Below, piece after piece: positions 23,342-42,236 of a stretch of 64,000 bases of DNA (its first letter is position 1; every line of letters starts with the position of its first letter). This DNA comes from a virus (taxonomy: Duplodnaviria > Heunggongvirae > Uroviricota > Caudoviricetes). The DNA lies in the IMG/VR virus record IMGVR_UViG_3300033489_000001, positions 190,023-254,022 of that record; one strand, written 5' to 3'. The translations under genes were made by a program, and so were the position numbers. Below the pieces are notes generated by a model. It searched no databases, was not told the DNA's origin, and was given only the letters and a program-made list of their open reading frames with translations.

Positions 23342-24589
23342 TCAAACTAATAACCTTTCGGTTCTTAGGTCAAGATTTAATTCCGATTCTTGCTTCATAA
23401 AGGACCGCCCTCGACCATGCCCTGCCCCTTCGGGGCTCCCGGCTTTGGTCTCCGGTCTTACGTCCTCTCCACAAGCATTTAGTGTCTCTCGATACCTTAG
23501 AGCGACATTTCTTAGGTTTATTGAGGCATTGGCGTCGCGATCATGTACCGCCCCGCAAGAGGGGCATACCCATTCGCTCTCGCCAAGAACCAATTCTTTG
23601 TAGATATATCCGCAACAAGAGCACGTCTTGCTCGATGGAAAAAACCTGCCCGCAAGGGCAATGTTGCTTCCACTGAGCTTCGACTTGTATTCTACCTGAC
23701 GATGAAATTCATAAAAAGCTGCATCTTGAATCGATTTAGCTAACTTATGATTCTTAAGAATCCCTCTTACATTAAGATCTTCTATCCCTATAAATCGGAA
23801 AGTTCTGACCAGCTTAGATGTGATCCGATGCCAAACATTAGATCTGATCTGAGCTACTTTCCGATGAGCTTTGGCAAGCCGAAGGCAGGCCTTTGCTCGA
23901 TTGGATGAACCCTTCTGCTTCTTACTCAGAGACTTACTAAGAATCCTTATTTTCCTCTCAGCTTTTCTAAGAGGTTTAGGGTTCTCAATCTTTTCTCCAG
24001 TAGAAAGAGTAGCTAGGGTTTTAATACCAACATCTACGCCCACCGCGTCTTGGCTATCGCACGCATGGGCATAGACAAAGGTTTCATCCGGGATTTGAAT
24101 TGAAAAAGAAGCAAACCATTTGTCAACAGATCTTGAGATTACAACTGATTTAACCTCTCCTTTGAATCGAAGAGATTGAATCATCTTAATAGGCTTCTTT
24201 AGGAGAGGGAGTTTTAGGTATTTTCCTGTTACTTTGAAATCATTCTCTCCTACATAAAATGAATCCTTAGACTTACCCTTCTTCTTGAATTGAGGGTACT
24301 TAGATTCTTTTTTGAAGAATCTTTTGAAAGCATCTCCTAAATTTTGAATAGCTTTTTGAGGAGCCCACTTAGAAACTTCTCTAACCCAAGGAAATTGATC
24401 ATCCTTAATTGAGTTGAATTCCTTAACTAAGGAGTAACCTGACATTCCTTTTTCACTTTGAGAGTATTTATCCTTCCAAGTCTTCAAAGCCCAGTTATAG
24501 GCAAATCTTGCCGTACCGCTGGCCTTACGCAAGTAGCGTTCGGCCTCTTGGTTGGGGCAGAGTTTGATCCTATGAGCTAATTGAGGCAT
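23342..24589 (-). mobile_element. tnpB: Solo TnpB (IS200/IS605/IS607 OrfB), RuvC intact; omega-RNA expected over the 3' end
   Basis: N-terminal HTH (RIKLCPN..GTARFAYNWAL), VGVDVG, IEDL, CxxC..CxxC, DRDANASINL; no tnpA nearby. Confidence 0.93.
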
Positions 24590-24638
24590 CTTTTTAGAGA
24601 AATTACACTAGGGTTAGAAAAGAGTCAATCTTAAGCTG

Positions 24639-24926
24639 TTAAATGGAAGTTTGATAGTTTGAGTCCTGAATGCCTACGCTGGCGATTATCCATTCGCAGG
24701 ATTCTCGACTTCTATTTAGGGGATTCATCCCCAGATATAAGCAACAGAACTCGGAGATTCCAAACCCACCTCTAGAGGCGAGACACTCTAATGACTGCCG
24801 TGTTCCGAATAATTTTACATATGTCTCGTATGCTTTCTCAGCCTCACACCATCTGATCGTGCCCCCTCGCTGTATTGGGAATCGTCTGTCATTACTTTTT
24901 AGGCTTGGTTTTAACTCAGTGCTCAT
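24639..24926 (-). CDS. Hypothetical protein
   Basis: ORF preceded by a CGGTGTAACAAT promoter-like motif. Confidence 0.6.
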   Translation of the reverse strand: MSTELKPSLKSNDRRFPIQRGGTIRWCEAEKAYETYVKLFGTRQSLECLASRGGFGISEFCCLYLGMNPLNRSRESCEWIIASVGIQDSNYQTSI

Positions 24927-25180
24927 CCCCCCCCCATTGTTACACCGGATTTATAAAAATCAAGGGCCTGAAAAAAGGGGTACTCTTTTCGGTGTATTTA
25001 CCTTTGTGTCAGATCTAAACTATGAAGAGTTGGCCAAGGTCGCCTTTGAAACCTATTGTAAAAGTCTTGATAAAAAAGGCAGAACGTGGCGGGAGCTTCC
25101 AACGGAGCGCAGAGTGGCTTGGATTGCCTCCGTTCAAGAAGTGATCGGCCTAGTCACCGCTGCTGACCTAACGTAAAAAC

Positions 25181-26107
25181 ATGAAAATTTTATATGTAAC
25201 CGACCTCCATGGGAATGAATGGAAATATGAAAAGACCTTAGAGGTGGCTCTCAGAGAAAAGGTCTCTTTGGTGATCAACGGTGGGGATATGCTCCCGTTT
25301 TTGGATTCTTTGAAGAAGGTCTATCCGGATGACTTTATTACAGAGTACCTAACTGATCACTTTCATCAATTTGATAGGGCCAAGATTCCCTACCTCTGTT
25401 TTCTTTGCAACGATGACTTGCGTATTTATGACTCAATTTTCGATAGTGTGTGCTCGGATTTTGAACACGTAAAAAACATAGCTCAGCGAAAAGTAGAATT
25501 TTTAGGCCATGAGTTTATAGGGATGAACTTGGTAAATGATTACCCTTTCAGACTTAAAGACAGATGCCGCTTAGATTCTAAAAAAGATCACGCTTGTGCA
25601 AGACAATTTGGAACGGCATTACTTTCAGACACTAATTCTACTGACAGAGGCAATCCGTTCATCACCATAAAAGATTATAACGCTTATCTAAAAACCATCC
25701 TGACAATTAAAGACGAATTAGATAAACTTCCTACGCCGCGTGATCCAAAAAAGTGTTTTTACGTTATTCATGTTCCTCCTTACGGATTAGGCTTGGATGT
25801 GTGCGGAGACGGTAGAGAAGTGGGCTCTTACTCGGTTAGAGATTTTCTCCAATTAGGACAACCGGCCTTTGCATTGCATGGCCACATTCATGAATCCCCG
25901 AGAGTTAGCGGAAAGTGGTACGCTCAGCTTGGAGAAACGCTTTGCATTCAACCCGGACAATACCCTATGCAACCACCTAAGAAGAAAGAATTCTTAGATT
26001 ACTATCTGACTTATGTATTGATCGACCTAGAAGAACAAACCATCGAGCGGGTTGACGAACCGGAATGCCAGGCTAAAGCTAGTATATTCAAATATGCCTC
26101 AAGATAA
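25181..26107 (+). CDS. Calcineurin-like metallophosphoesterase
   Basis: TDLHG, GGD, CNDD, HVPP, HGHIHE. Confidence 0.9.
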   Translation: MKILYVTDLHGNEWKYEKTLEVALREKVSLVINGGDMLPFLDSLKKVYPDDFITEYLTDHFHQFDRAKIPYLCFLCNDDLRIYDSIFDSVCSDFEHVKNIAQRKVEFLGHEFIGMNLVNDYPFRLKDRCRLDSKKDHACARQFGTALLSDTNSTDRGNPFITIKDYNAYLKTILTIKDELDKLPTPRDPKKCFYVIHVPPYGLGLDVCGDGREVGSYSVRDFLQLGQPAFALHGHIHESPRVSGKWYAQLGETLCIQPGQYPMQPPKKKEFLDYYLTYVLIDLEEQTIERVDEPECQAKASIFKYASR

Positions 26108-26522
26108 AGTATTACTCCTTACTGTCGGACTTCCCAGATCCGGAAAATCCACCTGGTCCTCGACTAAGCTCAAAGAGTTTCCCGTGGTCAATCCTGACAA
26201 TATCCGTTTGGCTGTACACGGGCAACCTTTCGTAGGAGAAGCGGAGCCTCTGGTTTGGGCCTTTGCCACCTATATGGTCGAAACCCTGTTCCTAACAGGT
26301 TACAATCAGGTTATATTAGATGCCACCAACGTAAAGAGGTCCGATAGAGATAAATGGAAGTCTCCTAAATGGTTGCGAAAGTACAAGATTTTTGAAACGC
26401 CTAAAGAAACCTGCATCCAGCGGGCGTTAGAAGGGGACAAAGAATATTTAGTGCCGGTTATTGAACGGATGGCCCTTGCGTATCAACCAATAGAAGAAGA
26501 CGAGTGGGACCAGTTTACTTAG
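26094..26522 (+). CDS. P-loop kinase, AAA_33 / polynucleotide 5'-kinase-like
   Basis: VGLPRSGKST, NPDNIR, ILDATN, CIQR. Confidence 0.85.
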   Translation: MPQDKVLLLTVGLPRSGKSTWSSTKLKEFPVVNPDNIRLAVHGQPFVGEAEPLVWAFATYMVETLFLTGYNQVILDATNVKRSDRDKWKSPKWLRKYKIFETPKETCIQRALEGDKEYLVPVIERMALAYQPIEEDEWDQFT

Positions 26523-26608
26523 GCCAATTGTTTGTGTCTTTAAAACATGAAGAGGGCTCGTTTTGGTGTAAGTTTGGAGATCTAACGTTGTAAGGATGGA
26601 GGTTCTAA

Positions 26609-26857
26609 ATGTCTGATAGTCACATTGGGAAAACATTCAAGGATACAATTTCAGGTTTTACTGGATTATGCACTGGTCATACCTTTTACATAAGTGGTTG
26701 TGATCAGTTATTACTAGCGCCTAAGGTCAATGATAAAGGAGAACTACAAGAATCTCACTGGTTTGATGTCCAACGTTGTCAACAAGTTGGTGAGACGGTA
26801 GTGACTCTAGATAATGCAGAGACGCCCGGTCATGATAAGCCAGCTCCTAAGAAATGA
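26609..26857 (+). CDS. Small conserved phage protein
   Basis: DTISGFTG...YISGCDQ...P...WFDVQR. Confidence 0.65.
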   Translation: MSDSHIGKTFKDTISGFTGLCTGHTFYISGCDQLLLAPKVNDKGELQESHWFDVQRCQQVGETVVTLDNAETPGHDKPAPKK

Positions 26858-27205
26858 CACGAGCCCCGCTCACTAAAACATGGAAGGGGCTTGTTTTAAT
26901 AAACTTAGACCCGTTATCTGTAAGTCCTTTGGTCGCCCACGCAATTGCTTGAGCTAACGTGACCGGCGTAGTAGGCGTCGGAAGTGTTGGGATAGGCGGT
27001 GTTGGGACCGGCACGTTACCGCCAAGAGCGTCAAAATCGGAAACAAGAGTGGCCCAATCGAAACCGTTGGAGCCTTAGTTTGCCCTTTAGCAACTTGGTC
27101 AGGAGTTAATAGGACGTACAATTCGCCACCATTAGCTGTAACGCAGAGCTTATTAATAGCTGCCCAAGTCAGCGTACCGAGCATCCCCCAAGTGTGGTAA
27201 CACGG
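26850..27205 (-). pseudogene. Frameshifted gene remnant, possibly the C-terminus of a papain-like peptidase
   Basis: HTWGMLGTLTW..GELYVLLTPDQ..KAP joins NGFDWATLVSDFDALGG and a Pro/Thr tail if one A is restored near 27065. Confidence 0.35.
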
Positions 27206-27338
27206 CGGTTGTTATCACGGGGCCGGTGAGCAAACGTGTTTTTTGAAAAAATTTGCTTTTTTATTTGACAGGCGGTTTTTTTCGGTGCATTATTACCCGG
27301 TAACGTAAAAACACCTTTTAGAGGTGCAATTTTCAGAT

Positions 27339-27416
27339 ATGAAACAGAACAGACAGATTTCGCCGATGCCCGTAGGGCCGCATAGCTATCCAATAGATAG
27401 CTTTATTCGGAACTGA
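27339..27416 (+). CDS. Leader peptide 1 MKQNRQISPMPVGPHSYPIDSFIRN upstream of tRNA cluster 1
   Basis: Follows TTGACA(27265)-N17-CATTAT; 19 of 24 sense codons after the start are read by tRNAs encoded at 27573-36774. Confidence 0.6.
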   Translation: MKQNRQISPMPVGPHSYPIDSFIRN

Positions 27417-27572
27417 TCCGTCTCAACTGTAGGCGGGTCAAAAAGAACCCGCCACGAAACACTTGCTATTTCTCGGCGGGGGATGTGAAAGGAGAAAGCA
27501 AGATGTTTGAACGTTCACCACAATTACCCGGTCACCCGTGCATTTCGAGGCACGGTGCAATCAGCGTATGAC

Positions 27573-27646
27573 CGGGGTAAGGGCTTGATGGTAAGCCGCC
27601 TGGCCTGGGACCAGGAGTTGTGCAAGTTCGACCCTTGCTACCCCGA
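27573..27646 (+). tRNA. tRNA-Pro(TGG), C33
   Basis: Acceptor CGGGGTA/TACCCCG; loop CCTGGGA; GTTCGA. Confidence 0.9.
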
Positions 27647-27699
27647 CTGGAAAATTTCAGTGATAGTGAAATAATGGTGAACGAATATTGAAAATTTAT

Positions 27700-27784
27700 G
27701 GTATCACGGGCACCGCTACTTAAGCTCTGGCGGATGTGCTGGGCGGGGTTGCTCCCGCTGTTTCGGGAAACCGGAGCTGGTACC
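27700..27784 (+). ncRNA. Unidentified four-way-junction structured RNA
   Basis: Closing stem GGTATCA/TGGTACC encloses three hairpins, the last capped by GAAA; no T-loop. Confidence 0.4.
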
Positions 27785-27795
27785 TTCCCTTTTGA

Positions 27796-27867
27796 TGCGG
27801 GATGACGCAGTGGAAGCGTGCAAGCCCCATAAGCTTGATGTCGTGGGTTCAAATCCCACTCCCGCTA
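27796..27867 (+). tRNA. tRNA-Met(CAT), initiator-like (1:72 mismatch), C33
   Basis: Loop CCCATAA; stem CAAGC/GCTTG. Confidence 0.88.
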
Positions 27868-27939
27868 CTAGTTAGAAGAGAATAAAGGCTTGAAAATGAC
27901 TTGGATAGACTCTAACAATGTTGAGGTTGACGATCTTCC

Positions 27940-28013
27940 GCCCCGTAACGCATCTGGGGGTGCGGTTGCCTTGTCACGGCAATGTTGGAGGAGTTCGATT
28001 CTCCCACGGGGCG
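27940..28013 (+). tRNA. tRNA-Asp(GTC)
   Basis: GCCCCGT/ACGGGGC; loop TTGTCAC. Confidence 0.9.
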
Positions 28014-28152
28014 CTAACCCAATTTGATCAAGTTTAGGCAGGTTTAGGGCAGTTTACAAAGAAACGATAACTTTACTAACTTTCGTATAAATGAGGAGAC
28101 AAGAAGAGTGAAAACTCGACCCCTACATAGCAGCTGCGGATGGCACTCTCAC

Positions 28153-28226
28153 GTTGTCCGTAGTTCAATGGTAGAACGTTGGGCGGTGGACCCAAAAATG
28201 ACAGTTCAATTCTGTTCGGATAACCA
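28153..28226 (+). tRNA. tRNA-His(GTG), G33
   Basis: G-1:C73 8-bp acceptor; loop CGGTGGA; encoded CCA. Confidence 0.9.
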
Positions 28227-28279
28227 AATCCGCTCCTATACCGTGCCGCGAGAGGCGGCAACTTTGACGGACGGTATAG

Positions 28280-28363
28280 GCATCGGACGGTGAATGGTAC
28301 ACCAACAGACTGTAAATCTGCGGAGCTTGCTCTATGAAGGTTCAAATCCTTCCCGATGCACCA
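28280..28363 (+). tRNA. tRNA-Tyr(GTA)
   Basis: Loop CTGTAAA; long variable arm; CCA. Confidence 0.93.
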
Positions 28364-28690
28364 AATCAATAGGAGTGGAAATCTTTTTCGGGACACAAAA
28401 GAGTTGAAAGGCTCACCGATTTCAATTATCAGGAAGGCGTGAAACCTTCCCTTGCTTTTCAGGTTTTACCCAAAAGAAGACTACCTCTTAGAACCACATA
28501 CCTTTTCAAGGAGTACCCTTTGGATTTATTGAATGCAAGCTGAGAGTATGCGATTTCACAATCTTCAAATACGAAGCCCAAAAACCAAACAGGAGAAAAC
28601 TGCTAATCAAGAGGGTTGGCACAGGGCAAAACGAAGGTCAATAAATCTCCCTTCCAGATGGGACGATATCTTCTTTAAACTACAGCGAAG

Positions 28691-29334
28691 TTGGAAGGCT
28701 CATCGAAAAACAAAGTTCAAACCAAAGTAACTACCATGAAACCCTACGGCGTAAAAATTGAAGAGTGGCCTGACGTGGCGGATATTCAAGCGATGGGCAG
28801 TAAAGGCTCTGTAGGCCGTTTGGCCGGGCGCTCCGGAGATTACCATCCTTACATCCGAGGCTCTAATAAAGCCCGAACCCGGCGGTACTGGAAGCGCCTT
28901 GCTCGTGCGGAAAGCAAGCGATTGTGTGTATGAAAGACTCCAAACCTAAAGGATGGGTTTTATTAGAAACCCTAAATATAGGCATTGTGAACTACGATGA
29001 TGACCCAATAAAAATGGCTCTCCTCGTTGAACAAGGCTCTTATAGGTATGTCCTAAAACCTGGAGGACGCTTAGGTGTTGAGCCCTTTCTATCTGAAAAT
29101 ATAAAGGGCACGAATTGAAAATTCAAGTTATCTGTCATCTGAGGTATGACTGACAAGTTTGAAAAGGTAAAACAAGTTTGGAGAGGCAACCAGCCAATAA
29201 CAGTTACGGTTCCTGGCCTTCACGGAGGAGCGGGAGACGTTGTAAAGAGGTTCACGGAACAGATTGGTATCAAACCCTGTTCGGCATGTGAAAAGCGGAG
29301 ACAACTTCTAAATCAAAGGTTACGATTCAAATAA
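28691..29334 (+). other. Three small hypothetical CDSs
   Basis: ORF track 28691-28933, 28924-29118, 29146-29334; tandem and co-directional. Confidence 0.55.
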
Positions 29335-29523
29335 GATCGTACTTTATGAGGATTGTTAAAGAATTTTTAGAGGGTATCAAGATTATTCGAGAATATCTTG
29401 AAATTAAATGTGAGGAATTAGAAGCTAGTAGTAGGGACGAAGTAGATGTGAAATTAAGTCCCTTCATCACTATTACATTAAAAAAGCGTTCAAAGAAAGG
29501 AAGAAAAGTAGCTTAGAAAATAC

Positions 29524-29911
29524 GGGTGCGTCACGGTTTCGACGGAGGAATGAAAACAATTGTAGCGTGCCCTGGTTGGTCGAAGGGCCAAGTAAAAAAT
29601 CGACCAAAACATAACTGCAAACGATAATGCAGCCCTCCCTCTCGCCATTGCGGCCTAGGGACGTTTCGCCAAGGAGATTCCGACTACCTTAGTGAGGCGT
29701 AAATTGAACGGATGCGAACTCAGGAGGAAGTTTCTGATCGACCTGAGCCAAGTACGAGATCAGTGGTGGTGGTGGTGGCGGTAACCCCGCCCCCGGAGGA
29801 TGCTGGTTGCAGCTTCTGAAGCCTCCTAAAAAACTAAGAAAAAGCAGATACGCACGTAGACGCAATTGTTAGTAGTTTTTTCGGACGCGGGTTCGACTCC
29901 CGCCGCATCCA
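29524..29911 (+). ncRNA. ssrA: tmRNA; tag ANDNAALPLAIAA (29617-29658)
   Basis: 5' GGGTGCG..GGTTTCGAC, 3' GGTTCGACTCCCGCCGCATCCA, G3-U70 pair, resume codon after ATAACT, tag ending AA-stop. Confidence 0.95.
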
Positions 29912-29968
29912 AAAGTACCGAGTTGGGAACCTGCACGCGGTGTACTTTGCACTCAAGATTAGAGACTA

Positions 29969-30481
29969 ATGCCCAACTATAAACGTAAAAAATGCTCTAA
30001 GTGTCACAAAACATTTGTGCCTAGCAGTGGCCACTTAAAATGCCCCACCTGTCGTGCTAAAGAACGACCTCGAATAAAATGTATAGATTGTGGAGAGTCA
30101 ATTATATATGACCGCGAACGTTGCCGTAAATGCGCAGATATGAAGCAAAAGGTGGAATCTAACGGAAATTGGAAAGGTGGAAAGACACGTCATAAAGCTG
30201 GCTACGTCTTAGTTCGTGTACCAGAACACCCCAGAGCTACAAAAAACTGCAAGTATGTATTCGAGCACATTCTGGTTATGGAGGAAGAACTCGGACGTTA
30301 CCTTCTCCCTGAAGAGAAAATTCACCATAAGAATGGAATGAAAAGTGATAACCGCACATCAAACTTAGAGGTATGGACAACGGCTCATCCCATTGGGGCC
30401 AGGATAAAAGACTTGGTTGTGTGGGCTAAAGAGCTTCTTGGATTATATGACCCCAAAGCACTACGGGTACATAAAAAATGA
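29969..30481 (+). CDS. HNH homing endonuclease with Zn-finger N-terminus
   Basis: NWKGG, EHILVME, IHHKNGMKSDNRTSNLE; directly after ssrA. Confidence 0.9.
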   Translation: MPNYKRKKCSKCHKTFVPSSGHLKCPTCRAKERPRIKCIDCGESIIYDRERCRKCADMKQKVESNGNWKGGKTRHKAGYVLVRVPEHPRATKNCKYVFEHILVMEEELGRYLLPEEKIHHKNGMKSDNRTSNLEVWTTAHPIGARIKDLVVWAKELLGLYDPKALRVHKK

Positions 30482-30764
30482 ACGTATTAGATGCACTATC
30501 AGAGGTTTCCGGCTTAAGTAAAGCAGAGACGGAAAAAATCTTTGAGACTGTAAAAGCAAACATCAAGCGGCTTAATGAATGCAGTGGGCCGCATGACTTT
30601 GAGAAGGTTGGAGAAGGCTTTAGAGCGATCTACCGTTGTAAGAAATGTGCTGGAGAGATCAGTCAGCGAGATCACGGTTGGTACGCAAAAGGTTTGGATC
30701 ATGGTAAGGCGAGCAAATAGGCGGATGCTGATAAGTGGGCAGGTAACACCTGCTAATGGCCTAT

Positions 30765-30843
30765 CCATCCGTAGCTCAATTGGTTAGAGTCCCCGTCTCA
30801 TAAACGGGATGAGATCCCGGTTCAAGTCCGGGCGGGTGGACCA
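30765..30843 (+). tRNA. tRNA(CAT), elongator Met or Ile2
   Basis: Loop CTCATAA; CCA. Confidence 0.88.
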
Positions 30844-30925
30844 AAGGTGAAAAGATTATGTTGAAACTAATTGAAAAAATGCTCGGAGGGATCACGCAGG
30901 GTGAGCCTGCTATAAATGATCTCTT

Positions 30926-30997
30926 GCGGGCATGGTCTAACGGTATGACGTGGGTTTTCCAAACCTAAGATGAAAGTTCAATTCTTTTTGCCCACAC
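30926..30997 (+). tRNA. tRNA-Gly(TCC), degenerate acceptor stem
   Basis: Loop TTTCCAA; top of acceptor mispaired. Confidence 0.7.
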
Positions 30998-31078
30998 TGT
31001 GAGAATAAAGAAATAACCATGGACCGCAAAATCACACATGACGAACACTTTACCAGCGGCTGCTACAGCATTGATCAT

Positions 31079-31151
31079 GCTCCGGTAGCTCCAACGGTAG
31101 AGCGCTTGACTGAAGATCAAGGCGTTGTTGGTTCGATTCCAACCCGGAGCA
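31079..31151 (+). tRNA. tRNA-Phe(GAA)
   Basis: GCTCCGG/CCGGAGC; loop CTGAAGA. Confidence 0.93.
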
Positions 31152-31714
31152 CTCCTAACAATATGGATGCCATATCGAAATTTTTTGAATCCCAAAAGAC
31201 TCACAAAAAGTTAGCAGAGGTACTTGCTGAACATTTTAAGCCTTTTACCAAGTGACGAACAGCAAATCCTGGATGAACTTTATGAGAGTCTCCACTTACG
31301 AGCTAGATAGGCGCACGAGATTATTAGCGGAAACGAAGCTAGCCATGGCGGAACAAGAAGAAAAAGAAATGGCATCCATATATAGCGAACCCCACGTCGT
31401 AAGTGAAGGCGGAACCGCCTGTAGGAGCGCTTACCCTAAGTGCGAGGGATGCCCTTATGTTAGCCGGGGGTGCCTGAAATCCATTACCAAACCAGTAGAA
31501 GGCCGTACCCTCCTTTACGGAGGAACCTTAGAACAAGTAGAGAAACAATTAGCTTGTGATCACGATTGGCATGGGCCAGGTATAGATGAACTTAGCCGGT
31601 ATAATAAGTGCATGAAATGTTTTGCTCTAGAGCGTGATATGGATCAAGAAAAATATTATAGGGAGATTGGGCTCATTACCGAGCCGGTGAAAGACCGGCA
31701 AAAACGTAGGTAAT

Positions 31715-31788
31715 GGGATCATAGCTCAGCCCGGTAGAGCAAACGGTCGATAACCGTTAGGTCGTTGGTTCAAATCCAACTGGTCCTA
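31715..31788 (+). tRNA. tRNA-Ile(GAT), C33
   Basis: AACGG-TCGATAA-CCGTT. Confidence 0.92.
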
Positions 31789-32883
31789 CAAATGAAGATC
31801 GAACCAATCCCACAAGTTCAAAAAACAAGACATTGTCCCAGGTGTGGTATTGAAGTTACGCCTAGAACCGAGTCTTGTCCTTCATGTAAAAAGGTCCTAT
31901 TCGCTAGAAAATATTCAGTGCAGGCTAAAGCTTTCGGATACCTCTTTGGAGCCCTAATAACGCTTGCTAGCGTGGAAAGGTTTGTAAGAGGATTCAACGA
32001 TCTGAATGAGATGGCAGTGGCGGCCGTAGTGGTTGTTTCGTTTATTGGACTATCAAGTGCCAGGTTTGTACAACTTCTGATGCCACAAGATTTAGCCGTT
32101 TGGAAGCCGGTTCAGCATTCAATAAGGCCAATTCAACATTTGATAAAAAGATGTTAGGGTAAATGCCCCCTCTACCTAAAATGACTTTAAAACCAGGTTG
32201 CACAGTTCATTTCCAAGGTTGGGGTAACTACTATACTAATCTTAAAACACTCTTACATGAAGCTAAAGAAGGTTATGTGGAACTCAAAGGAGAAGGTGAA
32301 CTATTTTGTGTAGATAACCCTCAAGAGCGTCTTATTGGATTTCAACTATACATCGCTAATAAGGTTGTTTGGAAGACGTGGGATTTTATGATTGGTATAG
32401 ATGACTTCAAAGCTTGTGTAAAGAAAGATCCACGTCTTGCGTATCTTGATACTACCAAAGGACGCCTAGAGTGGGCAGCTAAAATTGAAAATATGTTCCA
32501 ACTGGGCCTACCGAAAAGATCTTGAACATCTATTCCTTTCGGTGTAATAATAAGTACCATGAAACAAATTTTAATCTTAGCCTTTGGTTGTGCTCTTCTG
32601 TTCGGTTGCACTGAGCAACAGCGAGCGAAACAATTTGGCGGCTCTACTTCCACTGCCCTGCCTTGTGACCGTAAGCTAGAAATGATTACCTGGAAGGATT
32701 CTGACTTGTGGCTCCTTACAAGGCAGATGCGAGCGGGTGAAGAATCGGAAACGCATTCCTTTGTTGAAAGTTCAAACTTGGGCTTTGCAGAAGGAAAAAT
32801 CACAGTCACGGAATCTCGGTGCAGGTAAAAATCAATGTTGAAGGCTAAGTACAGATTGAGGCGAAGATCCCTAAATAGGTTTT

Positions 32884-32959
32884 GGGGGTGTAGCCTAGAG
32901 GATTAGGCACCGGTTTCCTAAACCGGCTTTTTACGTAGGTTCGAATCCTATCACCCCCG
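32884..32959 (+). tRNA. tRNA-Arg(CCT)
   Basis: Loop TTCCTAA. Confidence 0.92.
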
Positions 32960-32963
32960 CTAC

Positions 32964-33039
32964 GGGAGTGTAGCTCAACGGATTAGAGCGCCCGGCTTCT
33001 ACCCGGAAGATGAGGGTTCGATTCCTTCCATTCCTGCCA
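32964..33039 (+). tRNA. tRNA-Arg(TCT)
   Basis: Loop CTTCTAC; CCA. Confidence 0.92.
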
Positions 33040-33568
33040 AGAGAAGGTTTGGTGATGCATAATCAAGATATTGAGAAGCTAGTGCGGCAATTAGATGAAG
33101 ATGGGCGTATCGTTTTATCCGAAGGTACAGGGCTTGGAGTAAGAAAAGAAAGACGTTACGGCTCGGTTTCCGATATGGATTACTTCCTCTTTAAGGGATG
33201 GGGTGAAGAAGGTAATCTTGAAGTAGCTTCTTCCTTAGAAGCCGTGAAAAAAGCTTGTTCCATCATGCAAGCGGAATCCACACTGATGGAATTGATAGAT
33301 CTCGGATTACACAGTTCCCCTCGCACTATTTTTTGAAATTTCCCCTTGCATCCATCAAAAGAGTTTGTCATAATCTCTAACGAGGAAACGATGTTTACTC
33401 TAAGCCTAGAAGGATTGAGCCGTTTAGAAGGCTCTTTTTCTGCCTACGATCGGCGTATGGGGATGCTGGTCAGTAAGAGTAAGCGAAGCTCCAGTCTAAA
33501 ACCGGGCTCTGGAATAAATACCACCGGGTCGGCTAACTAAGCTGACCCATACAGTGTTGGTAGATTAT

Positions 33569-33641
33569 TCCGGAGTGGCTCAATTGGTAGGGCACCTAGC
33601 TGTTAACTAGGTTTATGTTGGTTCGAGTCCAACCTCCGGAG
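33569..33641 (+). tRNA. tRNA-Asn(GTT)
   Basis: TCCGGAG/CTCCGGA; loop CTGTTAA. Confidence 0.93.
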
Positions 33642-33688
33642 CTTTATGATGCTTAGACGGATAAAACGCAACGGCTTTTCTCAGATGA

Positions 33689-33761
33689 GGGTCGTTAGCT
33701 TAGTTGGTAGAGCAGCGGGCTTTTAACCCGACGATCACAGGTTCGATCCCTGTACGACCCA
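33689..33761 (+). tRNA. tRNA-Lys(TTT)
   Basis: Loop CTTTTAA. Confidence 0.93.
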
Positions 33762-33776
33762 CCCTCGCACAATATT

Positions 33777-34445
33777 ATGATGAAACGTTGTACAGGTTGT
33801 AAACGTGAAAAATCGACTAAAGAATTTAATGCTAATAGAAGCCGTAAAGATGGTTTATCAAACCGATGTAAAACTTGCAACAAAACATATGCAAAAGCAT
33901 ATCAAGCCGCTAAAGTAACACGTACTGGCAGAATGTGTAGAATATGTAGACGATCTAAACCATTAGATGACTTTTCGTTAGTTAGAAAAGGGATTAGACG
34001 GCGGGTATGTAAGGAATGTGTATATGAAAGAAAGCGTAAAACACGAAATACTTGGGGCATCAAGAACCGAGAGCGCCTTAACTTACAACAGCGAATGAAC
34101 CGCAAAAATCCCGAATTAACACCTAGATTTGTGTTGGTGGATTCAAGGAGAAGCGATAAACGAAAGAAACTAGAGAATGATCTTACCTTAGATTTTGTAA
34201 CTACTATTTTGAAAAAGGCTTGTAGTTATTGTGGTGAAACAGGAATTAGAATGACTCTGGATCGGATAGACAACAGCAAAGGCCACACTCAAGATAATGT
34301 TCAAGCTGCCTGCATAAGGTGTAATTATCTTCGAAGGGACATGCCTTACGAAGCATGGTTAGTTGTGGCAAAAGGTGTAAAAAAAGCTAGGAAGCTGAAA
34401 TTGTTTGGGTTATGGTTAGGGAAAATAACAAGTAGAAAACATTGA
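33777..34445 (+). CDS. HNH endonuclease with tandem Zn fingers
   Basis: CTGCKREK..F...DG....CKTC; CSYCG..TLDRIDNSKGHTQDNVQAACIRCN. Confidence 0.88.
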   Translation: MMKRCTGCKREKSTKEFNANRSRKDGLSNRCKTCNKTYAKAYQAAKVTRTGRMCRICRRSKPLDDFSLVRKGIRRRVCKECVYERKRKTRNTWGIKNRERLNLQQRMNRKNPELTPRFVLVDSRRSDKRKKLENDLTLDFVTTILKKACSYCGETGIRMTLDRIDNSKGHTQDNVQAACIRCNYLRRDMPYEAWLVVAKGVKKARKLKLFGLWLGKITSRKH

Positions 34446-34535
34446 TCACTTTTTCAAAGTAGAAATCCTTCAAGATGCTAATCCAACTAAATAGACCTAA
34501 GTTCAAGCGCACGGAGAGGTGCGCTTACAGGATTT

Positions 34536-34608
34536 GGGTCTGTAGCTCAGTTGGTAGAGCATCCGGCTCTTACCCGGAACGTCGCGAGTTCAATCCCCGC
34601 CGGACCCA
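34536..34608 (+). tRNA. tRNA-Lys(CTT)
   Basis: Loop CTCTTAC. Confidence 0.92.
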
Positions 34609-35130
34609 CTAGAAAAGGCCAATACATATGATTATCATTGTGAATGGCGTTGAGATAAGATTTCGCACATTAAGGATGCTATCTTTTGATGAGGTTGTGA
34701 GGTTAGCTGGAAAGCCCGTAGGCCCGCTCTATACCGTGACCTATAAGAAAGCGGGAGGGCAAAAAACGGAAGGTTCAATGCGGGTGGGGGATGTAGTAAA
34801 GATCAAGGACGGCACCATTTTTTAATGTTGCCCTCACTTGAGCTGTATTGATTCCGGGGGTATTTTATCAGTTTGACTTTCATTCTTCTTGAGCAATATC
34901 CCCTATTGATGCCTTATCTTCTTAATGAATGAGGTTCATCAATTAAAGTAAGCCCGCCTTCTTTAATGAGCGGGACGCAACGTAAGCGGTGATCTAACTA
35001 CCAGGATGGATTCTTAAATCCAAAAGATACTCTGGAAAGCCTATACCGTCTTCGAGGCTTTTAGACGATTAGGGTTTTCTTCTGATGATATTTATTTGCA
35101 CACGGAAGCTCTATCTCCACTGTGAAACTT

Positions 35131-35165
35131 GCTAGGTACGGCAAATTTAGTAAGGTTGCTTGATC
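35131..35165 (+). repeat. 35-nt exact direct repeat (second copy 39171-39205)
   Basis: GCTAGGTACGGCAAATTTAGTAAGGTTGCTTGATC. Confidence 0.9.
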
Positions 35166-36684
35166 TGGCATTTAGTCGGTGTAATATAACCGGGATGGAA
35201 ACCAGAGATTTACATCCAGATGAAATTAGTAACAAGAATCTTCTTGAGCATATCAGAGGAGCTGATGGGGGCTTACCTCCCACGTTTGTTGGGATGACTT
35301 TTGTTCGTCATGTTAAAGAAGGAAGAGGATGGGATTCTGAATTTGCATGGGCAATTTATATTAGTCACGATCCCTGTCATGATGATCATCGTAAACGCTC
35401 AGTACTAGGAGATGACCGCAGTACCGTTATTGCCTTTCATCGAAACAAAGGGATTTTCCGCATTATTGGACGGGAGCTGCCTAAAAAGTTAGCTTTGGAG
35501 CTTGCAAGAGGAGACCTGCCAAAGATTGGAGAACAACCTCCTTATACCAACGGCCGTTTGTTATATTTTTGGTTTCTTTATGACTGGGAATCCCGCGACA
35601 AGCAGCTCTTACTAAAGCCTCCTGGGCCTGATTATGTTTATAGACCAAATGAGAAACTTTACCGTTGTGTACTTGGAATTGATCCTCCTTTGGATAAGAC
35701 GATCGATGAGATCTTAGCTTCTGTAGAATTTGAAGAGGCTAAGACAAAAGAGCCCTTAGGCTCTAAGGAATTTTCCGAGTACCTCGCCCATCATCTATTT
35801 AGCGAGGTTCATAAATTTATGCCTCCGGAAACCTTTGGGTATGGGCTTCCTGGGATTCAATCCAGATTCTTTCGAGGTGAATCCGCATTCACATTGAAAT
35901 CAAAGTGGGGTAACTATATAGTTCAAGTCACAAAGATTCTGGACCCATCAAGTTAAAGGATTCCAAGAATTACGAACTAAGAAAGAGGTGGACTCATGTT
36001 ATTACTGACCCCTTGGGCGTGTATTATAGGCGCAATTGCTTTCATCGTTCTTCTCTTTTTGGTCGAGTTAGATCGTTTTGGTTTTGCCACGCTATTGATG
36101 ATTGCAACGATAGTGGCGGCTCAATACTTTCACATAGCCGATATTTTGGGATGGGTAAGTAAGAACTACGCTTGGACACTAGTTTACGTCATTGTTTATC
36201 TGATATTGGGAATAGGTTGGTCGATTGGAAAGTGGGTTTTATTTCTACGAAAGTTCAACCGGAAGCGGCTAGAAGCTGTTTCTGCTGTACAGTCAACCGC
36301 AAAACAAGAAGACCCTCCAACACAATCTGTAAAGGATATTTCCGTCCACTTGAAACATGAGATGTATAAGGGGACTTATTTATCACAGAGACCCAAGGCA
36401 TCGGACTACAAGGGGACAATAATCGCATGGATGATCTGGTGGCCCATATCTATGATTAGCACCTTCTTGAATGATCCCGTCAGAGAACTATTCAACATCG
36501 TCTATGACCAGCTCAGTGGACTTTATCAAACCCTCGCTGACAAGATCGTTTCAGATATTGAGAAGAAGTAAACCTCCCCGGTGAACCTAAAGGCTTGACA
36601 CAACCCTCGATAGGTGTATGATAGGAGATATGTTTTTCGGACGGGCCACAGAAAGCAGTACGCGCTCTGAGAGTAAAATCTTTC

Positions 36685-36774
36685 GGAGAGGCGACGAACA
36701 TTGGTGAGTCGTGGCATTTTGCTAAAATGTTGGGCGTAACTGTCCTGGGGGTTCGATTCCCTTCCTCTCCGCCA
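36685..36774 (+). tRNA. tRNA-Ser(GCT)
   Basis: Loop TTGCTAA; long variable arm; CCA. Confidence 0.92.
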
Positions 36775-37628
36775 TGCTGAAGAGAAAGTACAAAGGGCTG
36801 AGGTGGGCGGCTACCATTGCAGGTATGGCAGCCATAGTGGCCTTTAGTGGGCATCTTTATCCGGTCCTCAATAAGCCTGGCTTTGTTATTGCCGGATGGG
36901 TTATGTTAGGTACAAGCTTTACCCTTGTGCTCTCAGTGAAGCTCCTTGAGTGGAAGGACGCTAGGGATAAAATTAATTGAGGACAAGATGAAAAAGGTCT
37001 GCCTAGATAGAGAAGCTATTCTAAAGAATCAACTTCTAACTCCGAAAATGAAAAAACTTTTAGAATGGGAAAAGGCTTTCGAACGTGCTCTAAAAACATG
37101 GCGACTAGAGCATGTTTTTATTGATCCTCAATATCGGGACGCTTTGCAAAAAGAGTTAGATGTGCTAAAAGGCTAACATGCTGCTCTTCCTTTGGAAAGT
37201 ATATTGGTTTTTTGAAGCCGTTGTTATCTTCCCCTTACGGCGTGCCCGGCGTGGATGGCGTGAACATCACCCCGTTCTTTCCGTTAGATTAGCCACATGG
37301 GCTCATCAACGTCAGCATCACTCGCTGTATCGAGCTATTCAACTTTTCTGGGGAGTTAGAAACAAGTGGCGTTTCGATATTGCCCCTAAGTTCTCAAGTT
37401 GGTGGTTTGAGCTAACCTTACCCTTACGCCCTAAATGCAAAAAACATAACCGCTCCTTACTCTTTTTAGGGGCTTGTTTCATGTGTATTTTTGAAGAAGC
37501 AAGGCGTAAAGAACGGCTGCAAGCGTTGACTAGTAAACGATAAGTATTTCAAGCTACTTAGGGTTAGAAAAAGTGGACTCCTACCAAGCACCTCTAATCC
37601 TAAGTAGCTTGAAAATACTTATAGGATG

Positions 37629-38519
37629 CTAAGTAGCTTTCAATACTTTTCGAGCCTGAAGAGCTGCTGCTATCTTAGCTCTATGTTCTTTTGTTTTAGG
37701 ACGACCTTTTGTAGCAGCACTCAATTTTGCTCGTGTTTCATCTGAAAGAGATTTGCCTATTTTCGAAGCTCTAATCTTTTCCCTAGTTTCTTCTGAAACG
37801 GTAGCCCCAGAGTCTCGCCATTCTTTCCAACGCTTTTTATTGCACGAACTTATGATCGCACGCTGTTTAGCAGATATAGTCTTACCTTTGTGTATTCGAC
37901 TCACGGCCTCTCTAGCTGCGGGATCTATGAATTGACGTAAGGTGGCTTGTCGGAGTTTTTCTTTGGTTTCTGCACTGTGTGGTTTACGTTTTATAGGATT
38001 TAGCCTACGCCGTTTCCAAGCGGCCTTCATTTTAACTTTAGCAGATTCTGGCCTGGGTTTACCCCGACTTAAGATCTGAGCTTTACGTAATGCCTCTAAT
38101 GACTTTTCAGTGGGTCGTGGAGGTTTGTATCCGGGGGTATTACGGCGTCTTTCCCAAGCAGCTTTAATACTCTGACTAGCTTTTTTCTTACTTTCAACAG
38201 TTTTTTCATACCCCAGAATACCCCCACCCCCATCAGTTAAATTTGTCAGGTTGCAACCGAGTGTACGAAAATATTTAATCCAGTAGCATTCCGCTTCATT
38301 CCCATTTAACACTGGAACTTTTTGTATTACTCTGATCTCTGGTTTGATCCCAGCTTGTATCAATTTCTGTAACCAAAAATCTTTATGCGTCTTTTTATGT
38401 TTGCTACAATAAAGATGTTCGTAAAGGCGTTTACTAAGTTTTGCGGAAGTCCATCCGATATATCTGATTTCATCCGAAAAAGGATCTATGAGAGCATATA
38501 CTGTGGCCCATTGATTCAT
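37629..38519 (-). CDS. GIY-YIG homing endonuclease with NUMOD3 repeats
   Basis: VYALIDP..IRYIGWT..RLYEH, E..WI, YNLT-like CNLTDGG; HSAETKEKL-type repeats. Confidence 0.9.
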   Translation of the reverse strand: MNQWATVYALIDPFSDEIRYIGWTSAKLSKRLYEHLYCSKHKKTHKDFWLQKLIQAGIKPEIRVIQKVPVLNGNEAECYWIKYFRTLGCNLTNLTDGGGGILGYEKTVESKKKASQSIKAAWERRRNTPGYKPPRPTEKSLEALRKAQILSRGKPRPESAKVKMKAAWKRRRLNPIKRKPHSAETKEKLRQATLRQFIDPAAREAVSRIHKGKTISAKQRAIISSCNKKRWKEWRDSGATVSEETREKIRASKIGKSLSDETRAKLSAATKGRPKTKEHRAKIAAALQARKVLKAT

Positions 38520-38603
38520 CCTCTATAGAAACCTTATAATATGGTTTGTTACACCACCTTAGATTTATTTTTATCTGATAAAAAATGTAGCTGAGGAAAA
38601 AAT

Positions 38604-39203
38604 ATGGCTATTCTAACTTTACAAGTGCCGGAAGAAACTGCACGAGTTTTACGAGAAATTCCAGTTCCAGGAAACCAAGAAAAAGATGAAGCTCACGTTA
38701 CGATCCTATTCTTCGGAAAAGAACTACCAATTACTCAAATCAGTTCTATGCTTCCAGTGATCTATGAGATTACTTCAAAGACACTTCCCTTTTCTGTGTC
38801 AACCAATCACATTTCAACTTTTCCATCGGGAGCCGATGGTGTCCCAGTTATTGCAAGATTAAACTCCCCATCTTTACATATCTTTAGAGAGACGCTATGT
38901 AAAGCTTTCGATGATGTGGGTCTGTTCTACGATACTAAATTTAAAACATACAAACCGCACTTCACCTTGGCGTATGCCTCCGATCCTAAGACGACCGTAG
39001 GCATTGACATCCCTGAAGTGTCTTGGGGCGCTCACGAAGTAGTTCTTTGGGGGTCCGACCAAGGCACCGGGCGGCTAATCATCAAGTTCCCCCTGAGCTT
39101 ACCTGAGGGGAAGGTTTCAACGCTCAGAATGCCCCAAGAGTCTGTTTTGTACCGATCCTTTGTGAAGCTCGCTAGGTACGGCAAATTTAGTAAGGTTGCT
39201 TGA
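38604..39203 (+). CDS. 2H phosphoesterase / LigT-like 2',3'-cyclic phosphodiesterase
   Basis: Two HxT motifs: AHVTI and PHFTL. Confidence 0.85.
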   Translation: MAILTLQVPEETARVLREIPVPGNQEKDEAHVTILFFGKELPITQISSMLPVIYEITSKTLPFSVSTNHISTFPSGADGVPVIARLNSPSLHIFRETLCKAFDDVGLFYDTKFKTYKPHFTLAYASDPKTTVGIDIPEVSWGAHEVVLWGSDQGTGRLIIKFPLSLPEGKVSTLRMPQESVLYRSFVKLARYGKFSKVA

Positions 39204-39227
39204 TCCGTTGTAGGGGAGGGATGCCCA

Positions 39228-41413
39228 ATGATAGATTGTAAAGATTGCAAACTAGCCTGTGGGATGTGGCCAAAAAATATGCATAAAGGTGAGTTTCATT
39301 TACTTTGGCAATGCGATAGCAAAATAACCGAAGTGGGGGAGAAGTCTTTTACCGTCTGTGATACGACTGATCCAGAAAAACTAAGCGAGATATTAATTGA
39401 AGACATATCTGAGGGGGCCGACCGAAAATTAATCAAACTGGGAGCTTTACTAAGAGAATGTGAAGGTTATCTTGACTCTTTGGGTGGACATCGGGCTCAT
39501 GTGAATGTAAAAGTTTTTATCCGTTAATAGACTGTTTGCTTTTTGGTGTATGCAATTGTATATGCTTATGATCGTATAACAACTCAAACTATCCATGAAT
39601 AACCCAACCAAAGAGGAATTAGAGGAAGCTTTTGCCTTTCTTGAAAGATATCCGATCAAACGAGATCTTAGAAGTTTAACTGAGAATGAGTACAATAGAG
39701 AACAAGCTAGGAAGTTTTTGTCCATATTAACCCCCAACTCTTCGTTAGCAAAAAGAATGCAGAATATAGCAGAAGGAAAAGATGAGTAATCTTCTAGAAA
39801 ATGTGGTGGCTATCACTATCACGCGGCTGGAGGCCGCTGGAGGTGATTGTCATGGCAAACCACAAAAGAGGTCGTCCGAAAAATAGGCGCGCAGGTTGCC
39901 TTATGTGCAAGAGGCACAAAGCAAATGGGGCTAAGGGGAAATTGATAAATCAGACTTGGCAAGAACGTAGAGCTGTTCTTTCTGAAAAAGAACAACGAAA
40001 CGAAATAGAAGCATGGAAGACGGAAAAATAGTTTACGAAAAAATGAGTTACTCCAGTTGTATCGCTTATGGAACAACTCTTCCTAGTCTCTTCTTTGCTG
40101 AAGAGACTATTTACGAAATGGAATACCCAGTTTGGTATCCAAATGGACATATTTACATTGCAAACCGTAAACCTAGATATACCCCTCCTGAAAAATAACA
40201 GTATGCATTAGGGTCACTTTCTCATATGCAAATATTACAGATAGGTAAGTAGAATTGATGCCTATTTTTCTTGTCTTTAAAGTTAAAGAGTTATCTTGTC
40301 CCCCTCCTCCAAATGGCTGGTGGTTAACCATTGCTGGTTTGCTACTGATTATTAGTGGCTTGTGTAATATGTGGCAACTTAGGACTATATTGAAAGAAAA
40401 GGGAAAGACTTTAGATGTTCTAAAACAACTTATGGCTATGAGTAGTGAAAATATAGAGTTAAGCCATGTACATTCTTCTTGTCCTTACCAAAATTGGGTC
40501 GCAAGTAGCTGCAACCTTTATTACAAAAGTAAAGCTGAACAAAAAGAAGTGGACTCAAAACAAACTCAAAATTAACGTAACTGTCTAACCAATAAATTTC
40601 TTTCAGGCCAGGGATAGTTTATCGTAGCCCTGAAAGCATCCCTTATATAAGGCTTCCCATCTGGTCTGCATTTGCTGATATCATTGCAAGTCATTAATTG
40701 TTCTCTAAATACGCCCCTGTAGTAAGATGCCGCAGCCGCTTTCAATCTGGGGTTGGATTCATAATCAGCTTGAATATAGCCTACCAGATACCAATAAGCT
40801 TCAGTAAGGTCTTCTTGACAACTAGCTCCAGTCTTGATTTTGATGTTTAATTCTTCAATTTTTTGAGTTAGTTCAGGATGCTTTGTTGAACTTGGGGTGG
40901 GGTAACCGTGATCGTGAATATTGATTTCTTGTTGAGCTATATTTCTGACTTGAGCACAGACATAGACAGTAGCACTTCCAACAGCTGTAATGATACTTAT
41001 TACAATTGTCCAGATGCCTATGATTTTTTGGATTTGGATTTGATTTGGCACATCAGGTCTTATTTTTTAAGGGCTAACATCAAACCTAAGATAACAACTA
41101 CTGCTATTAGGAAGGGCACCACCAAATATACCCATGTGGCTTTCACAACCACGTAATTACTTCCGGGGGGTAAACTCTTCATTATCTCTGGTTGTTCTGC
41201 TCCCCGTTTTAATTCAATATCTGGAAGAGGCTGATCTTTTGGTAGGGGTAGGTTTCCGGAAAGGAGTAGATCTCTTGAGGAATCTAATTTTATTACCTCT
41301 TCAATTGTTTTGACACGTTGTTCTAACGCACGAAGTTCTGCATCATATTTTTCCGAGTTTTCTTCGTATTTTACTGTCAAGGCAGACTGGTCTTTTATAA
41401 ATTGCAACCGCAC
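39228..41413. other. Small hypothetical CDSs (+: 39228-39527, 39595-39789, 39801-40031, 40013-40198, 40255-40575; -: 40572-41051, 41060-41413)
   Basis: ORF track; several have single transmembrane segments. Confidence 0.55.
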
Positions 41414-41509
41414 ACTAGAGGTAAAGAATAGAAGCTTTTGTTGGAAACATTACAAAAGCATAAAAAACGCTTGACAACCTTCTCCCCTTAGTCTAGTCTG
41501 ATAGACAGT

Positions 41510-41593
41510 ATGTTTCAGCGCCTTTCAGCTTCTCTCCTTCTATCTTTATCATTGCTTTTAACTAAGCTGCGAGCGCTCCCGTCTATCCACTAA
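41510..41593 (+). CDS. Leader peptide 2 MFQRLSASLLLSLSLLLTKLRALPSIH upstream of the Leu/Ser tRNA cluster
   Basis: Follows TTGACA(41471)-N17-TAGTCT; 10 Leu codons (all six types) and 5 Ser codons. Confidence 0.8.
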   Translation: MFQRLSASLLLSLSLLLTKLRALPSIH

Positions 41594-41640
41594 TCTAGTC
41601 CCTAGCGCCCGCAGCAGCCCATAACCAGGGGCTAGCACAA

Positions 41641-41723
41641 GCGGGTGTGGCGGAACGGAAGACGCACCAGGTTTAGGCCCTGGCGTTCGAAAGAACGTGG
41701 GGGTTCAAATCCCTTCGCCCGCA
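41641..41723 (+). tRNA. tRNA-Leu(TAG)
   Basis: CCAGG-TTTAGGC-CCTGG; long variable arm. Confidence 0.93.
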
Positions 41724-41729
41724 CTGTGA

Positions 41730-41812
41730 GCAGGTGTGGTGGAATGGCAGACACGCCGGATCGAGGGTTCGGTGGCTTCAAAACCGTGCTGGTTCAAATC
41801 CAGTCACCTGCA
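41730..41812 (+). tRNA. tRNA-Leu(GAG), C33
   Basis: CCGGA-TCGAGGG-TTCGG. Confidence 0.9.
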
Positions 41813-41865
41813 CCGGTAGTTCACGGAAATAGCTATGTTTACGGTTACTTGAACATTAAGGATAA

Positions 41866-41950
41866 GCTCCGATGGTGGAACTCGGCATACACCCCGGTCT
41901 TAGAAGCCGGGGCTCGAAAGAGCGTACAGGTTCAAATCCTGTTCGGAGCA
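41866..41950 (+). tRNA. tRNA-Leu(TAG), second isodecoder
   Basis: Loop CTTAGAA. Confidence 0.92.
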
Positions 41951-41954
41951 CTAC

Positions 41955-42037
41955 GGAAAGCAAACTGGTCCGGGATCAGCCCCGCCTTGAAAGCGGTGGG
42001 CACCGAGAGGTGTGGAGTTCGACCCTTCTGCTTTCCG
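41955..42037 (+). tRNA. tRNA-Ser(TGA)
   Basis: Loop CTTGAAA; G73. Confidence 0.9.
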
Positions 42038-42044
42038 CCGGTTT

Positions 42045-42128: not shown

Positions 42129-42147
42129 CTGATCTTTGAAAAGTTAT

Positions 42148-42235: not shown

Positions 42236-42236
42236 T

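Follow-up and report, generated by a model that had tools for sequence, protein, structure and literature searches.

To our knowledge, it is not known how phages regulate their large tRNA sets. Published cases of ribosome-mediated attenuation concern amino-acid, synthetase, resistance and transporter genes, and our literature search returned no account of leader-ORF control of tRNA genes in either phages or bacteria. The locus described here raises the question of whether a leader ORF of 25 codons, placed before a block of mixed tRNA genes, reads out the tRNAs that it precedes, and what the output of such a sensor might be. The locus lies in a stretch of 64,000 nucleotides (the window, whose numbering is used throughout) that was taken from a virus record of 411,618 bp (bases 190023-254022), which is complete and has direct terminal repeats. 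The source is an uncultured phage of 411 kb.

The tRNA island and its four leaders

Based on ARAGORN predictions, 36 tRNA genes and a tmRNA were present in the window, and a scan of the whole genome revealed no tRNA or tmRNA genes outside it. All of these genes are located on the plus strand, in four blocks (C1-C4). The first block, C1 (27573-36774), contains in this order the tRNAs for Pro, Met, Asp, His and Tyr, the tmRNA, and the tRNAs for Met, Gly (tcc), Phe, Ile, Arg (cct), Arg (tct), Asn, Lys, Lys and Ser (gct); small genes and homing-endonuclease-like genes are scattered among them. Its 15 tRNA genes serve 12 codon families. C2 (41641-43081) holds five Leu and two Ser tRNAs, C3 (57418-58439) holds Trp, Cys, Gly (gcc), Val, two Ala and three Thr tRNAs, and C4 (60107-60627) holds two Glu and two Gln tRNAs together with Arg (acg) and Arg (ccg). 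The tRNAs that a preliminary description of the locus had placed downstream of the leader were recovered, with two caveats. First, tRNA-Asp (gtc), at about 27938-28015, is a probable gene that was missed by default ARAGORN, called only at a relaxed threshold, and also matched the Rfam tRNA clan below threshold; when it is counted, the tRNA set of the phage spans all 20 amino acids. Second, ATA would be read by a phage tRNA only if a lysidine tRNA-Ile were present among the two CAT tRNAs.

Directly upstream of C1, a metallophosphoesterase and an AAA_33 kinase are encoded at 25181-26522 and constitute a possible end-healing pair. The tmRNA (29524-29911) is situated inside C1, and an RtcB ligase (45436-46542) is encoded between C2 and C3. 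Taken together, the phosphoesterase/kinase pair, the tmRNA and RtcB suggest an island for RNA repair and translation rescue or supply. Homing-endonuclease-like genes at 29969-30481, 33777-34445 and 44463-45398 are found among the tRNA genes and adjoining rtcB. Two of them are Cys-rich and HNH-like by eye, and one was assigned to LAGLIDADG by Pfam; the label of 29969-30481 was given by eye only, and 33777-34445 produced only a sub-threshold match to Stc1. Immediately 3' of the last tRNA cluster, a TnpB-like ORF (60758-62197) with Cas12f1-like TNB and OrfB_IS605 domains was detected. A similar TnpB-like gene occurs in a metagenome contig (L036) that also carries an AAA_33 kinase and phosphoesterase pair.

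Each of the four blocks is preceded by a short ATG ORF: L1 (27339-27416) before C1, L2 (41510-41593) before C2, L3 (57280-57399) before C3 and L4 (60033-60092) before C4. The four units are built alike, with an A-tract, TTGACA, 17 nt, a YAnnnT hexamer and then the ORF. This shared promoter pattern (TTGACA-N17-YAnnnT with an upstream A5+ tract), which was defined post hoc, occurs four times in 411 kb, in every case before one of the four leaders. The four promoter-plus-mini-ORF units divide all 37 tRNA/tmRNA genes of the genome among them. Since all tRNA genes lie behind the four leaders, the cluster belonging to a leader could be defined, without any free parameter, as the tRNAs that lie between it and the following leader.

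Codons read by the tRNAs of the leader's own cluster amounted to 17/24 in L1 (17-19/24 depending on the wobble rule; P = 3e-3), 15/26 in L2 (P = 2e-7), 20/38 in L3 (range 20-27/38; P = 3e-6) and 17/18 in L4 (P = 2e-14). The leader-by-cluster table was strongly diagonal, with every off-diagonal cell depleted, and none of 100,000 permutations of codons among the leaders reached its trace of 69/106. C1 codons accounted for 17/24 codons in L1 versus 9/82 in the other three leaders (Fisher P = 2.7e-8). The partition was also visible for the split amino acids: L2 uses only TCN for Ser, L4 uses only CGN for Arg, and L1 uses AGC twice, AGA and GGG, with TCG and CGG as its two exceptions.

For comparison, a 20-mer of tRNA-Pro was found in 53 metagenome contigs in which the similarity ended at the tRNA, and these served as a negative control. 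Among the 101 tRNA blocks of these unrelated contigs, no match came near those of L3 and L4. The best short ORF of the control reached P = 3e-5, which is close to the value of 6e-6 obtained for L2 in the same scan, and the only stronger matches came from one 113-codon Glu-rich ORF present in two contigs.

A search for relatives by megablast against GenBank phages gave no close relative. A search for related loci with three neighbouring proteins and an exact search for the hairpin in IMG/VR both returned none, and a search with the terminase (PF03237) as an anchor gave no match. Homologues of the upstream phosphoesterase were rejected as a route to relatives, being mostly bacterial and not syntenic. 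Eight distant relatives were identified via a structural protein (47-64% identity), and three of these carry a tmRNA and tRNA arrays, in a different tRNA order and with a G+C content that is clearly higher by eye. No matched leader was detected in the approximately 50 tRNA blocks of these three genomes, and the element was absent from all relatives found. In two relatives (G002, L031:9730-10000 on the minus strand, and G006, L032:6390-6630), an ORF of about 50-60 codons is followed by a nearly identical GC hairpin terminator. This ORF lies upstream of a Tyr-Lys-Lys-Gln-Asn tRNA block and is not codon-matched to it.

Codon content of the first leader

The L1 unit is self-contained and comprises about 310 bp. 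It begins with a sigma-70-like promoter on the plus strand (27265-27293; TTGACA, 17 nt, CATTAT; 10/12 matches, with an A/T tract upstream), which ranked second among such sites in 14 kb. The first ATG downstream of the predicted transcription start is that of L1, and a re-reading of the sequence placed the ORF at 27339-27416, with its 25 residues and codons exactly as first listed, followed by TGA (27414-27416). A Shine-Dalgarno (SD) sequence was not found at the usual spacing; the sole SD-like motif, AGAGG, lies within a hairpin that the predicted transcript forms at its 5' end (27312-27326), where it is paired and 14 nt away from the ATG. Phage genes in general show the usual SD peak at -15 to -9. 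L2-L4 also have no SD, and L2 and L3 are near-leaderless. The stretch of about 400 nt between the terminator of an 82-aa gene and the L1 promoter (26858-27260) contained no convincing ORF on either strand and no Rfam match. A minus-strand gene overlapping the leader was considered and rejected, as the ORFs at 26954-27184 and 27169-27393 were without family matches.

Of the 24 non-start codons of L1, 17 are read by C1 tRNAs under strict wobble and 19 under generous wobble, compared to a background fraction of 0.41-0.49 in long ORFs (P = 2-3e-3). By fraction matched, L1 is the weakest of the four leaders, and this statistic alone is modest (P about 3e-3). L1 samples 12/12 of the C1 codon families within 24 codons, with one to four codons for each family. 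This coverage had P = 7e-5 in 200,000 ORFs simulated from phage codon usage; among the 1538 real small ORFs in the genome, one reached it. The match depends on the frame: the other two frames gave 9/24 and 7/24 matching codons and covered 7 and 5 families, compared to 17/24 and 12 in the L1 frame. Within codons 13-23, ten or eleven are C1 codons. The preliminary description had held that L1 samples nearly every tRNA of the cluster, and the coverage of all 12 families bears this out; it had also named random 25-codon ORFs as the comparison to be made, and these match C1 worse than L1 does, both in the fraction of codons and in coverage.

On this evidence we consider it likely that L1 is a genuine codon-matched sensor. 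L1 does not consist of a single repeated codon because its tRNA block is mixed, and a mixed set of tRNAs is matched by a mixed sampler. Alternatively, the frame could have arisen by chance within a 5' leader that is not translated, the hairpins serving only to stabilise the RNA or mark it for processing. This would agree with the absence of a usable SD and with the low rank of L1 by fraction matched; as no relative with the element was found, conservation gives L1 no support either. Such a frame would, however, not be expected to cover all 12 families, to do so in one frame only, to form part of a diagonal four-leader table, or to have a promoter of the type common to the four leaders, and we regard this alternative as unlikely.

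A terminator-like hairpin with a T-rich tail (28432-28460) is located just 3' of tRNA-Tyr and could close a first transcription unit after the Pro, Met, Asp, His and Tyr tRNAs. Codons for these five proximal tRNAs make up 8/12 of L1 codons 9-20. Further promoter-like sites are present within C1, for example at 36595. Because C1 spans 9 kb and includes such terminator-like and promoter-like sites, one transcript may miss some of the sampled tRNAs. Two short ORFs within C1 extend into the 5' end of a tRNA gene, 32835-32906 into that of tRNA-Arg (cct) and 36618-36707 into that of tRNA-Ser (gct). The former has 4/22 AGR codons (P = 2.5e-3) and the latter 3/28 AGY codons (P = 1.6e-2), in agreement with the "secondary leaders" mentioned earlier for this DNA.

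Competing helices and a second ORF

The stop codon of L1 is overlapped by the first of four RNA segments on the plus strand that can form alternative helices. Segment 1 (27414-27423) pairs with segment 2 (27431-27440), segment 2 can instead pair with segment 3 (27447-27453), and segment 3 can instead pair with segment 4 (27475-27480). Folded as isolated hairpins, helix 1:2 (10 bp), helix 2:3 (7 bp) and helix 3:4 (6 bp) were nearly isoenergetic, at -11.6, -12.6 and -11.9 kcal/mol, respectively. The 1:2/2:3/3:4 layout is as originally proposed, with a helix 1:2 that is longer than had been reported, and it is non-random. A chain of three mutually exclusive helices (minimum 6 bp and 4 G-C pairs per helix, arms overlapping by 5 nt or more) was found in 0/2000 shuffles and in 0/4000 random 86-nt windows of the genome; its frequency in 121-nt windows was 0.55%. 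The result for the 4000 random windows is a further argument against a chance frame. Two other roles for the leader RNA were rejected. The hairpin is not a genome-wide repeat, as motif counts were near expectation, and an anti-tRNA helix sequestering the 5' strand of tRNA-Pro was not favoured, as the best L1:tRNA duplex was no better than shuffles (P = 0.47). For the other leaders, the corresponding values were P = 0.45 for L4, 0.016 for L3 and 0.12 for L2.

A classic attenuator of the trp/his type, with helix 3:4 (or 2:3) as an intrinsic terminator of transcription, would fit the helix layout and the overlap of the stop codon with segment 1. As had been remarked before, a U-tract is lacking downstream of every helix. 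No intrinsic terminator was found, the U-tract being absent after 27453 and after 27480, whereas such a tract is present in the phage's own recognisable terminators, as it is downstream of 26857. What comes after segment 4 is a ribosome-binding site, and we consider a trp/his-type attenuator highly improbable. A scan of 24000-44000 against Rfam (E<=1) returned tRNA, tmRNA and weak chance matches, with no T-box or other family. Nor was a C-rich, G-poor Rho site present, as the 78-nt windows downstream had C fractions of 0.19-0.26 and G fractions of 0.26-0.31. The downstream leader RNA was strongly folded (z = -3.4).

The ribosome-binding site after segment 4 belongs to a second short ORF, ORF2 (27503-27571, plus strand; 22 codons), which has an AAGGAG 8 nt before its ATG and whose stop codon is followed, after 1 nt, by tRNA-Pro. 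This AAGGAG is the only well-placed, strong SD in the leader. ORF2 itself was rejected as a codon-matched leader, since 10/21 of its codons are of C1 type by hand count, which equals the background. The strand that contains the AAGGAG and the ORF2 start codon (27491-27508) pairs with an anti-SD strand (27457-27473) located inside the loop of helix 3:4, giving a 16-bp hairpin of -15.9 kcal/mol (z = -2.7). The anti-SD:SD helix crosses helix 3:4 with a linker of 3 nt on one side, and in our judgement the two would be unable to coexist. In silico, the ribosome-binding site of ORF2 is accordingly sequestered by a helix that excludes the alternative one, as translational attenuation requires. This predicted hairpin over the ORF2 start would be a fourth level of the toggle, which the earlier reading overlooked.

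The strong SD of ORF2 and the frequency of small genes in phage tRNA regions would also be compatible with L1 and/or ORF2 encoding small functional peptides, the codon match then being incidental. The neighbouring small ORFs have no family matches that would give such peptides a context, and a peptide function fails to explain the partition at the level of codons (Ser AGY versus TCN, Arg AGR versus CGN). We find this explanation improbable.

The influence of ribosome position on the fold was assessed with folding models. On 27410-27510, state A, in which helices 1:2 and 3:4 are formed and the SD is open, had -28.5 kcal/mol, compared to -30.9 kcal/mol for state B (helix 2:3 and the anti-SD:SD helix). 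For the full leader at equilibrium, helix 2:3 formed with P = 0.96 at every ribosome position except with the A site at codon 21, where state A reached 0.6 and SD accessibility doubled. The stability of helix 2:3 in nearly all equilibrium folds also speaks for a chance frame. The attenuator proposed at the outset stands in its codon match, its four-member set and its helix layout, whereas termination of the trp type finds no support, given the missing U-tract, the G-rich RNA and this predominance of helix 2:3. A different result was obtained for RNA up to 27442, in which segment 2 has emerged and segment 3 is still absent. Here, helix 1:2 had P = 0.94-0.98 without a ribosome or with a ribosome in codons 2-21. 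The value decreased to 0.89 with the ribosome at codon 22 and to 0.59 at codon 23, and helix 1:2 no longer formed (P = 0) once codons 24-25 or the stop were reached. From these models we infer that the position of the ribosome would hardly select the state at equilibrium and would do so co-transcriptionally, such that a ribosome keeping pace blocks helix 1:2 and leads to state B, and a lagging ribosome allows state A. The kinetic logic would be the same as in known attenuators, as far as thermodynamic models indicate. For the helices acting as a ribosome-set switch, we see the case as evenly balanced.

In the folding models, the ribosome-binding site of ORF2 appears as the feature directly under control of the toggle. 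Since the anti-SD:SD helix would control an ORF next to tRNA-Pro, it points to translational rather than transcriptional attenuation, and the likeliest direct output predicted by the models would be an erm/toiL-like translational attenuation of ORF2. We put forward the ribosome-binding site of ORF2 as the direct output only tentatively. L2-L4 have no second ORF, and a comparable helix chain occurs in L3 only, so that the output is not uniform across the set.

A real L1 sensor could also act through Rho termination or RNase cleavage within a 157-nt untranslated stretch, with ORF2 being irrelevant or a second sensor. The codon evidence (17-19/24 codons, 12/12 families, diagonal table) fits such an output equally well, no intrinsic terminator is present, and known leader ORFs of this type act via Rho (toiL-topAI, PMC12121999; mgtCBR, PMC3641672). 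The base composition and folding of the stretch given above (G-rich and structured) would nevertheless make it a poor loading site for Rho, and such an output would offer no explanation for the anti-SD:SD helix or for the strong SD of ORF2. We judge this output to be rather unlikely.

In the proposed model, which retains ORF2 as a relay, L1 would be one of four translation-sensing mini-ORFs, each behind a sigma-70-type promoter and heading a tRNA block. The fold would depend on how far the first ribosome has advanced along L1 by the time segment 2 leaves RNA polymerase. With a ribosome lagging in codons 2-22, segment 1 would be free, helix 1:2 would form first and helix 3:4 next (state A), and the AAGGAG of ORF2 would be open. 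With a ribosome that keeps pace and is located on the last codons or the stop, segment 1 would be covered, helix 2:3 would form (state B), and the anti-SD:SD hairpin would close the ORF2 start. In this model, L1 probably gauges the reading speed of its codons. Slow decoding of the sampled codons would then activate the translation of ORF2, whose reading frame extends to 1 nt short of tRNA-Pro. Our guess is that a ribosome on the ORF2 stretch shields (or unfolds) the nascent leader against premature termination or cleavage, and we speculate that the yield of tRNA precursor would then rise at times of low decoding capacity, such as those that follow the action of tRNA-cleaving host defences. The model as a whole, with L1 as a translation-sensing leader, the helix toggle and the ORF2 relay, seems to us plausible, with a probability slightly short of even.

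Known systems and biological meaning

Several known leaders share individual features with L1. Like L1, the enterobacterial leaders thrL, ilvL (ilvGMEDA), trpL, hisL, leuL and pheL are short 5'-leader ORFs rich in sensed codons, and the multivalent ones (thrL and ilvL) have several amino acids per leader, as in L1. Overlapping 1:2/2:3/3:4 helices, with a stop codon adjoining segment 1, are also common to these attenuators and L1. Unlike them, L1 precedes tRNA genes and not genes for biosynthetic enzymes, its codons are spread over 12 families with one to four in each where those leaders have codon runs, and it has neither a terminator U-tract nor a good SD, its segment 4 leading into a ribosome-binding-site hairpin.

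The closest mechanistic analogues of L1 would be translational attenuation of the erm/cat type and the toiL uORF. In ermC and cat leaders, the position of the ribosome on a uORF decides between helices that mask the ribosome-binding site of the next ORF and helices that leave it accessible. In the toiL-topAI system of E. coli, stalling at various toiL positions opens the topAI ribosome-binding site, and translation of topAI then prevents Rho termination, with Rho acting downstream (PMC12121999). Thus, toiL responds to stalls at many positions, as a mixed sampler such as L1 would. The signal in erm, cat and toiL is an antibiotic, whereas that of L1 would be tRNA supply. In addition, the downstream ORF of L1 has only 22 codons and abuts a tRNA gene, and its toggle has four levels as opposed to two or three.

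The Salmonella mgtCBR leader contains tandem short ORFs, one of which senses charged tRNA, and stem-loops chosen by translation (PMC3641672). It resembles L1 in having two short ORFs in one leader and no canonical intrinsic terminator, and differs from it in having protein-coding targets and specific sensors (Pro codons, ATP) instead of a 12-family sampler. In mycobacteria, leaderless polycysteine short ORFs act as attenuators (bioRxiv 10.1101/834739). These are likewise mini-ORFs without an SD or leader at the 5' end of an operon, whose codons sense amino-acid or tRNA supply, and they resemble the near-leaderless L2 and L3; unlike L1, they respond to one amino acid only, precede protein-coding genes and function in a different host. 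The nearest published case to L1 is the tRNA array of Anabaena. The Anabaena trn operon and other cyanobacterial tRNA arrays are induced under translational stress via the protein repressor TrcR and, similar to the phage island, they are supernumerary tRNA arrays with RNA-repair genes nearby (PMC8421152, PMC10272220). In contrast to L1, they are controlled by the TrcR repressor, and no leader ORF has been described for them.

What would be new here is the logic of ribosome-mediated attenuation at tRNA genes, with a mixed codon sampler and probably a translational relay as output. L1 is the most informative of the four leaders, as it extends the principle beyond homopolymeric codon runs and also displays a likely translational relay, predicted from its folding, instead of a terminator. 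The broader reading of L1 as a general decoding-capacity gauge for the 15-tRNA block, whose four-level toggle and relay ORF raise tRNA output as soon as any one of the sampled codons is decoded slowly, is one that we hold to be doubtful. If true, leaders 1-4 would give block-by-block feedback control of the complete tRNA set, and decoding capacity would come under a direct supply-and-demand loop, with a leader ORF reading out the tRNAs under its own control. This feedback would possibly be a counter-measure to host immunity that cleaves tRNA. Host defences of this kind have been described (PMC10264068, PMC11555353), and the finding would tie phage tRNA arrays, RNA-repair genes and tmRNA to them.
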